Shown here: piece by piece, positions 3,001 to 6,000 of the stretch
Position numbering within the stretch: position 1 is the stretch's first letter
Layout: every line of letters begins with the position of its first letter
Source of the DNA: Escherichia coli
Lineage (GTDB): Bacteria; Pseudomonadota; Gammaproteobacteria; Enterobacterales; Enterobacteriaceae
Reading direction: 5' to 3' (one strand)
NCBI RefSeq assembly: GCF_022846255.1
Contig: NZ_AP025682.1
Length of the DNA stretch: 64,000 nucleotides
Program-made: the position numbers

Positions 3001-6000
3001 TTTTATTGCCAATATTTTTTGTCATGGTGTTCTTTTCCGCACTTAATTATTGCCTGACATTGATATCCCCGGCAGGATTAAATGATCTCATTTACACATT
3101 AATCCAGACGCCGCTCAAACATATGGGAACGAATATCTTTGCGGTAATTATCCTGGGGGCTGTGGGTAATTTCCTCTGGGTGCTGGGGATCCACGGACCT
3201 AATACAACGTCGGCAATTCGAGAAACCGTTTTTTCTGAGGCTAATCTGGAGAATCTCTCCTGGGCCGCTCAACACGGCACTACCTGGGGCGCGCCATATC
3301 CGATTACCTGGACTTCTATTAATGATGCATTCGCCAACTGCGGCGGTTCAGGTATGACGTTGGGGTTATTGTTGGCTATTTTTATCGCTTCTAAGCGTGC
3401 GGAATACCGTGATCTGGCAAAAATGTCATTTATCCCCGGTATTTTCAATATCAATGAACCGATAATGTTCGGCCTTCCTATTGTACTTAACCCCATCATG
3501 ATGGTGCCGTTTATTATGGTTCCCATTGTTAACTGTGCCATTGGTTACTTCTTTGTTTCGATGGAAATTATTCCACCGGTTGCTTATGCCGTGCCCTGGA
3601 CTACGCCCGGACCTTTAATTGCTTTCCTCGGAACCGGGGGAAACTGGCTGGCATTACTGGTTGGTTTTTTATGTTTAGGTGTGGCGACAATGATCTATTT
3701 ACCTTTTGTTATCGCCGCCAACAAAGTCAATAACATGACAACTAACGGATAATTCCATTTACCCAGGAAGGAGATTGTGATGTTTGCAGATGAAGAACTT
3801 GTTATGGAGTTACTGATCAACGCGGGACAGGCTCGTTCTGATGCGATGGAAGCCATACGTTGTGCCGGGCAAAAAGACTGGCAGGGCGCAACTAAACTAA
3901 TGGCCAGCTCTGAATCTGCCTGTCTTCAGGCGCATAAGATTCAGACCGCGTTAATTAGTCAGGATGAAGGCTGTGGCAAAATAGAAGTTAATTTAATTCT
4001 GATACATGCACAGGATCATTTGATGAATGCAATATTATGCCAGGATTTAGCCAGGGAAATTATTTCATTAAGAAAAGAGCTCCATGCCTGATTTTTTCTC
4101 CAGTGCGATATCTGGAGGAAATTACTACACTCTTAAGGATAAGTCATGAATATAAAGACGCTTAACGTCAGCCTTTTGTCTATTTCTATTATTACAGCAT
4201 TGTTTCCGTTGAACGCGATGGCAACAAAATTAACCATAGAGCAGCGCCTTGAATTGCTTGAAAATGAATTGTCACAAAATAAACAAGAGCTGAAAGCAAC
4301 ACAGAATGAACTGGGAGTATATAAATTCCGACTTTCGACATTACAAAAAAGCATCACAGAAAATAAATATCAATCGGCCTCGCTTGCCGAAATATCAGCG
4401 ACATCTCCCGCTGCTGATAACATCAAAAATGAAAACGGTGAACAGAACTCGTCTGCCGCAGCACATACTATAAATGGATCGCAGCAAATTGCCGTTATTG
4501 AAAGTAAAGGCGATAAAACCACTATCGAAAGCGTGACCCTGAAAGATATCAGTAAATATATAAAGGATGATATTGGATTCAGCTATCAGGGGTACTTCCG
4601 CTCAGGCTGGGGCACCGGTAATCACGGCTCACCACAAACTTATGCAGCGGGTTCTCTGGGACGTTTTGGTAACGAGATGAGTGGTTGGTTTGACCTGACC
4701 TGACCTTAAATCAGCGTGTTTATAATCAGGACGGTAGAACGGCAAATGCGGTCGTTACCTATGATGGAAACGTAGGTCAGCAGTATAACGATGCCTGGTT
4801 TGGTGACAGTGCCAATGAAAATATCATGCAGTTCAGTGATATTTATCTGACAACGCGAGGTTTTTTACCCTTCGCACGAGAGGCAGAATTCTGGGTCGGC
4901 AAACATAAACTCCCGCAATATGAGATCCAAATGCTGGACTGGAAAACCTTAACCACGGATGTTGCCGCGGGTGTGGGGATTGAAAACTGGGCGCTTGGTG
5001 TAGGGCTGTTTGATATGTCCTTAAGCCGAGATGATGTCGATGTTTACTCTCGTGATTTTACGCGTACCAGTCAGATGAATACCAATTCTGTGGATGTTCG
5101 TTATCGCAATATCCCGTTATGGGATGATGCGACGTTGTCATTAATGGCTAAATATTCCGCACCTAATAAAACGGATCAACAACAAGATAATGAAAATGAC
5201 GACAGTTATTTTGAAATGAAAGATAGCTGGATGCTGACTTCTGTTTTACGGCAAAACTTGCAACGCGATACGTTTAATGAATTTACGTTACAGGTTGCCA
5301 ATAATTCCTATGCCAGCAGTTTTGCCAGTTTCTCAGATGCCAGTAATACGATGGCGCATGGTCGCTATTACTATGGTGACCATACCAATGGGATCGCCTG
5401 GCGTTTAATCTCTCAGGGCGAGATGTATCTGACTGACAATATTATTATGGCTAACGCGCTTGTCTATTCTCATGGCGAAGATGTTTATAGTTATGAAAGT
5501 GGCGCTCATAGTGATTTTGACAGTATTCGCACCGTAATAAGACCGGCCTGGATCTGGAATACATGGAATCAGACGGGGCTTGAATTAGGCTGGTTTAAGC
5601 AACAGAACAAAACTCAGCAGGGGGTAACGCTAAATGAATCGGCTTATAAAACGACACTCTGGCATGCATTGAAAGTGGGTGAAAGTATTTTAGGTTCACG
5701 ACCAGAAATTCGCTTCTACGGGACGTATATCAATATTCTGGATAACGAATTATCGAATTTTAAGTTTAATGAGAACAGCAAAGACGAGTTTATGGCCGGC
5801 ATCCAGGCGGAAGTCTGGTGGTAATCTATTTAGTTAAGGAGTTGTGTATGTCAGGATTTAAAGAAGATTTTTTATGGGGCGGTGCGGTAGCCGCACATCA
5901 ATTGGAAGGTGGCTGGAATGAAGGAGGAAAAGGCATCAGTATCGCTGATGTAATGACTGCTGGCGCTCACGGGGTGCCGCGTGAAGTGACAGAAGGCGTT

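Follow-up and report, generated by a model that had tools for sequence, protein, structure and literature searches.

The GACCT repeat in the 5' part of a putative bgcH-like sugar-porin gene of Escherichia coli has gained a third unit in one clone, and the gene, which lies in a 64-kb stretch of DNA (hereafter the window), is thereby thrown out of frame. This third unit is derived and restricted to that clone, because all the other copies of the site that we examined have two units. On the reading that we consider very probable, replication slippage duplicated one unit and thus caused a recent, clone-private loss of the porin, with the rest of the operon intact, as one of many independent losses of this gene.

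The sequence of positions 4680–4725 is AGTGGTTGGTTTGACCTGACCTGACCTTAAATCAGCG, in which the preliminary description had noted nearly three tandem copies of GACCT at 4692–4705; the tandem stands, but the copies are three complete ones, ending at 4706, and the T before them extends the period-5 run to 16 nt (4691–4706). It is the sole threefold pentanucleotide tandem in the window, for which the chance expectation is ~64,000 × 4^-10 = 0.06 by our own arithmetic. That description had also placed the shift of the porin frame at this repeat and predicted that removal of one unit would fuse the 185-aa and 332-aa ORFs, and both points hold: the frame-0 ORF stops at a TGA within the tract, with the remainder in the -1 frame (Table 1), and in silico deletion of 4697–4701 (one unit) yields a single 1674-nt ORF of 557 aa that is continuous across the junction. 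Complete E. coli genomes have the intact gene, annotated 'carbohydrate porin', and its product is as long as the repaired one. The single uninterrupted frame of family length that is expected of a functional gene is absent from the window's porin gene. For its 3' part ORF callers list only 4826–5824 (332 aa), a frame with no signal peptide and with no evident Shine-Dalgarno sequence on inspection of the window.

Table 1. Genes of the bgc-type operon and features of the lesion in its porin gene, in window coordinates
Feature	Position	Strand	State and basis
Divergent GntR/UTRA-type regulator, BgcR-like	1107-1805	-	Intact, 232 aa; NCBIfam/Pfam and collinear annotation
PTS IIB, lactose/cellobiose family	2004-2315	+	Intact, 103 aa; NCBIfam/Pfam and collinear annotation
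PTS IIC, cellobiose family	2430-3752	+	Intact, 440 aa; start as annotated in the collinear locus L004
PTS IIA	3780-4091	+	Intact, 103 aa; NCBIfam/Pfam and collinear annotation
bgcH-like porin, 5' part	4146-4703	+	185 codons, then premature stop; signal peptide, Sugarporin_N coiled-coil extension and first ~39 LamB barrel residues
GACCT × 3 tandem	4692-4706	+	Wild type GACCT × 2; the extra 5 bp are the frameshifting lesion; single 5-bp gap in the alignment with the intact allele
Premature TGA stop	4701-4703	+	Product of the frameshift; reading of the frame-0 ORF
Rest of the porin barrel	4706-5824	+	~372 codons, now in the -1 frame (+2/-1)
GH1 6-phospho-beta-glucosidase, BgcA-like	5848-7287	+	Intact, 479 aa; NF007154, 1035 bits

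The repaired protein matches the Pfam LamB domain (PF02264) over residues 147–557, covering positions 1–378 of the 378 in the model (E = 4.9e-80), preceded by a Sugarporin_N domain (PF11471) at residues 30–56 (E = 3.9e-7) and by an N-terminus that looks like a signal peptide when the sequence is judged by eye. The two separate porin ORFs of the window, the 332-aa product included, each give only a partial LamB match. Maltoporin profiles of NCBIfam also detect the repaired porin (6.6e-59), and because the score falls under their equivalog cut-offs we assign it to the LamB-family sugar porins rather than to maltoporin itself; a search of the PDB sequences with the repaired porin recovered no chain at E<=0.01. 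The full-length match to the LamB barrel and the Sugarporin_N periplasmic extension are shared with the sugar porins BglH, ScrY and LamB, whereas the gene in the window is cut off after ~9% of the barrel. These domain matches support a bgcH-like gene of the LamB family, with an N-terminal extension of the ScrY/BglH type.

The locus is flanked by eamA and marB and has the bgc-type gene order, namely a GntR regulator, PTS IIB, IIC and IIA components, the porin and a GH1 phospho-beta-glucosidase, with the genes around the porin having the same lengths as in an annotated relative. The profile matches and the collinear annotation agree with the earlier statement that the porin is the only outer-membrane component of the operon. 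A bgc operon of E. coli, comprising bgcR and bgcEFIHA, was reportedly described by Neelakanta, Sankar and Schnetz in 2009 (AEM 75:2284). The bgc work of Neelakanta et al. (2009) is cited in passages of PMC3585215 and PMC3032704, and the summary in the former lists BgcR, BgcE/F/I, BgcH and BgcA as the content of this beta-glucoside operon. As judged from gene content and order and from that summary (PMC3585215), the locus in the window would be such an operon, from which it differs by the +5 frameshift in its porin gene. The bgcA-like gene has a Shine-Dalgarno sequence of its own (TAAGGAG, 5836–5842); a promoter scan found no promoter-like site on the plus strand in the interval from the premature stop to the start of bgcA, and across the operon the counts from the promoter and terminator scan equal the expectation from shuffled sequence.

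The wider window was also compared with NZ_CP098214.1, which has the closest bgc locus. A segment of ~11 kb (19807–30859), with the lsr operon (uptake of autoinducer-2) and an adjoining autotransporter-type region, is missing from NZ_CP098214.1, and the window is therefore mosaic relative to that B2-like relative. Another segment of ~15 kb (39290–54204), which lies between the fimbrial cluster and gadB and contains several large ORFs (561–931 aa), is non-collinear with NZ_CP098214.1, where an IS1 and remnants of genes are present instead.

The porin gene is found in 2,553 of the 5,426 complete E. coli genomes, about half, and the best matches to it there have 99.6% identity over 1674 bases instead of 1679. 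When a 95-nt probe spanning the repeat was run against the same 5,426 genomes, ~2,507 of them covered it in full, all in the 90–95% identity band, and the top identity, 94.7% (90/95), corresponds to a 5-bp gap and hence to two units. Row by row, the 30 top and 59 spread-sampled full-length matches each span exactly 90 bases, and the three-unit allele occurs in none of the ~2,507 genomes. Among metagenome contigs, a gapped DNA pattern with 6–20 nt between the flanks gave 0 copies, and the control pattern with 0–5 nt matched 44 contigs, each of which has two units; one-unit and four-unit alleles are likewise absent from the ~2,507 complete genomes and these 44 contigs. Aligned with the closest complete genome over 11,824 bases, the window shows 59 substitutions and one gap, the 5 bp at the repeat. 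The preliminary description had attributed the inactivation to a 5-bp tandem duplication and had asked whether intact homologues also carry three copies of GACCT; those compared all have two, which leaves the frameshift reading standing.

A 0–20 nt gap pattern run on a collection with one genome per species returned 0 matches, even to the wild type, which was expected there since the type strain ATCC 11775 has the wild-type site. The missing wild-type match may reflect an absent record or mishandling of the wide-gap pattern.

The truncated product of 185 aa is deposited exactly as BDH33458.1 and also as GDA53744.1, and the 332-aa product as BDH33459.1, with GDA53737.1 as its accession in the GDA series; the locus tags of BDH33458.1 and BDH33459.1 are TRECRb50_22740 and _22750, and both lie on a chromosome of 4.94 Mb. 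At the level of the consensus, GACCT × 3 is present in the Logan assemblies of four read sets (DRR322657, DRR322658, DRR102846, and ERR2349758). Assemblies L001, L002, and L062 match the window at 100% identity over 6.6, 5.2, and 5.0 kb, respectively, and that of DRR322658 (L003) has one extra A at 4942, in the GGAAAACC run of the 3' part of the porin gene, and three units nonetheless. Rather than a second mutation, this extra A probably reflects misreading of the homopolymer in that run. The four read sets may go back to one strain or clone as their common source, and the mutation may have arisen during culture, ahead of the first sequencing, against which the origin of ERR2349758 in a different archive is a mild argument.

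Lesions of several other kinds are found in bgcH elsewhere in E. coli. In B2-type alleles (L055–L058, L061, and L063) these comprise the nonsense codons W181* and W216*, the latter in 10 or more samples, the loss of 1 bp at nt 614, and a deletion that takes out IIC and IIA together with the porin gene's 5' end; a further B2-type allele, in the metagenome copy L023, has a stop at codon 130. In three non-B2 metagenome copies the allele is 1673 bp long and stops at codon 467, and a 1673-bp gene recurs in 2 of 39 spread-sampled complete genomes. Altogether, 4 of the 28 full-length metagenome copies are frameshifted (L015, L023, L030, and L033). A non-B2 allele in NZ_CM146016.1 (L009, 2244–3500) is interrupted by an IS3-family, IS911-like element of ~1.25 kb at the GACCTGACCT site, which corresponds to window 4695–4700, and the element has duplicated 3 bp of its target, CTG. 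Contigs from 43 or more blocks of draft assemblies stop at the position of this insertion, which suggests that it is widespread in a non-B2 lineage. The repeated inactivation of bgcH may result from relaxed selection or from selection against the porin.

The inserted 5 bp are an exact repeat of the adjacent unit, and we infer slippage as the mechanism of origin. Spontaneous slipped-strand replication over a pre-existing two-unit tract would have duplicated one GACCT; the added unit would shift the porin frame and end translation after 185 residues, and the product made would comprise no more than the signal peptide, the coiled-coil extension in the periplasm and ~9% of the barrel, with no channel. 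A spontaneous frameshift hotspot at the (CTGG)3 tract of lacI was reportedly described by Farabaugh et al. in 1978. One unit of that short tandem repeat is gained or lost by slippage (PMC12606429), and the bgcH tract resembles it in the gain of a unit within a coding short tandem repeat, in the slippage invoked and in being reversible in principle. The two differ in that wild-type bgcH has only two units and in that its tract gives no sign of a hotspot at the population level, with one clone among >2,500 genomes.

Two other accounts of the extra 5 bp can be set against slippage. The presence of an IS911-like element of the IS3 family at exactly this site in another lineage, and the breaks of many draft assemblies there, could indicate that the duplication is the target-site footprint of a mobile element that entered the tract and was later excised. 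However, that element duplicates 3 bp (CTG) and not 5 bp, the window retains no remnant of an element, and slippage in an existing tandem repeat is the simpler event; to our knowledge, clean excision with both target copies retained is not the usual outcome for bacterial insertion sequences. We therefore reject a footprint origin, given the CTG duplication and the missing remnant, as highly improbable. A sequencing or assembly artefact, with the gene intact in the organism, might be suspected of an extra unit that only one clone displays, yet two deposited records carry the same allele, as do four runs from two archives that were assembled independently, a duplicated 5-bp unit is atypical as a platform error, the noisy assembly of DRR322658 errs elsewhere, in a homopolymer A, but keeps the three units, and the rest of the 11.8 kb has no indel relative to the closest complete genome. 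We hold the chance of an artefact to be as slight as that of a footprint.

A different question is whether the porin is truly lost to the clone. The preliminary description had offered an on/off switch or recent decay as alternatives, of which the evidence favors the second. The tract could be a phase-variable contingency repeat that forms a reversible porin switch, for instance under phage or bacteriocin pressure: loss of one unit regains the exact wild-type sequence, gain and loss of units are known for short tandem repeats such as lacI (CTGG)3 (PMC12606429), and the repeated loss of the porin in E. coli could mean selection against it. Against this, the tract has only three units in 15–16 nt, two-unit pentanucleotide repeats are commonplace (82 registers in the window), the copy number is invariant across the ~2,507 complete genomes and the 44 contigs from metagenomes, each of the clone's four read sets has three units at the consensus level, and the other inactivations of bgcH are of an irreversible type (nonsense codons, deletions, IS insertion). 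The pentanucleotide CTCTT repeats of the Neisseria opa genes are phase-variable contingency loci, with long tracts that are polymorphic both within a strain and from one strain to another. The bgcH tract shares with opa-type loci a frame-setting pentanucleotide repeat in the 5' part of a gene for an outer-membrane protein, but it has two units everywhere and three in one clone, and displays neither the polymorphic copy number nor the long tract that characterize such loci. Reversion by loss of one unit is possible in principle, but we consider a contingency switch very unlikely. The same small probability attaches to a low-grade version, in which transient loss of the porin would allow escape from phages or bacteriocins that use BgcH, or would cut permeability near the mar locus; were it true, loss of a unit would restore the scavenging of beta-glucosides, and the many bgcH lesions would reflect the same selection against the porin. 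Programmed -1 ribosomal frameshifting, by which full-length porin would still be made, is the least credible alternative, with a probability that we place close to nil. A -1 shift would indeed restore the frame, but it would be confined between the -1-frame stop TGA at 4691–4693 and the 0-frame stop at 4701–4703, over the codons GAC CTG ACC, and every other E. coli has the porin in one frame. Motifs for -1 frameshifting follow the rule Z_ZZN or X_XXZ_ZZN (PMC4066793), and no such motif occurs in the frame overlap 4694–4703, (GA)C CTG ACC TGA, in which no three identical bases stand in a row. Programmed frameshifting was rejected on account of the slippery motif missing from this overlap.

If the porin is lost by slippage, as we prefer, the consequences for the clone would be partial. 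Only ~39 of the 411 barrel residues are encoded before the stop and therefore no channel can form, from which the truncated product would be null in function. The analogy with BglH leads us to expect that general porins admit small beta-glucosides. Uptake of beta-glucosides would accordingly continue by that route, less efficiently, and therefore the operon is probably impaired rather than dead, with the clone probably poorer in beta-glucoside uptake at low concentrations. As bgcA has no promoter-like site of its own after the stop and is preceded by ~1.1 kb of untranslated message, Rho-dependent polarity on this downstream glucosidase gene is possible.

For annotation, BDH33458.1 and BDH33459.1, now 'hypothetical protein' genes, should be merged and labeled as a frameshifted carbohydrate porin pseudogene. 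It is an ordinary strain-private pseudogene of a gene family that is already known, with little import beyond annotation. The window's allele is one more case of decay of a dispensable accessory porin, and the recurrent loss of bgcH in E. coli suggests that this porin is dispensable or sometimes costly, which makes it a candidate case of recurrent outer-membrane protein loss.
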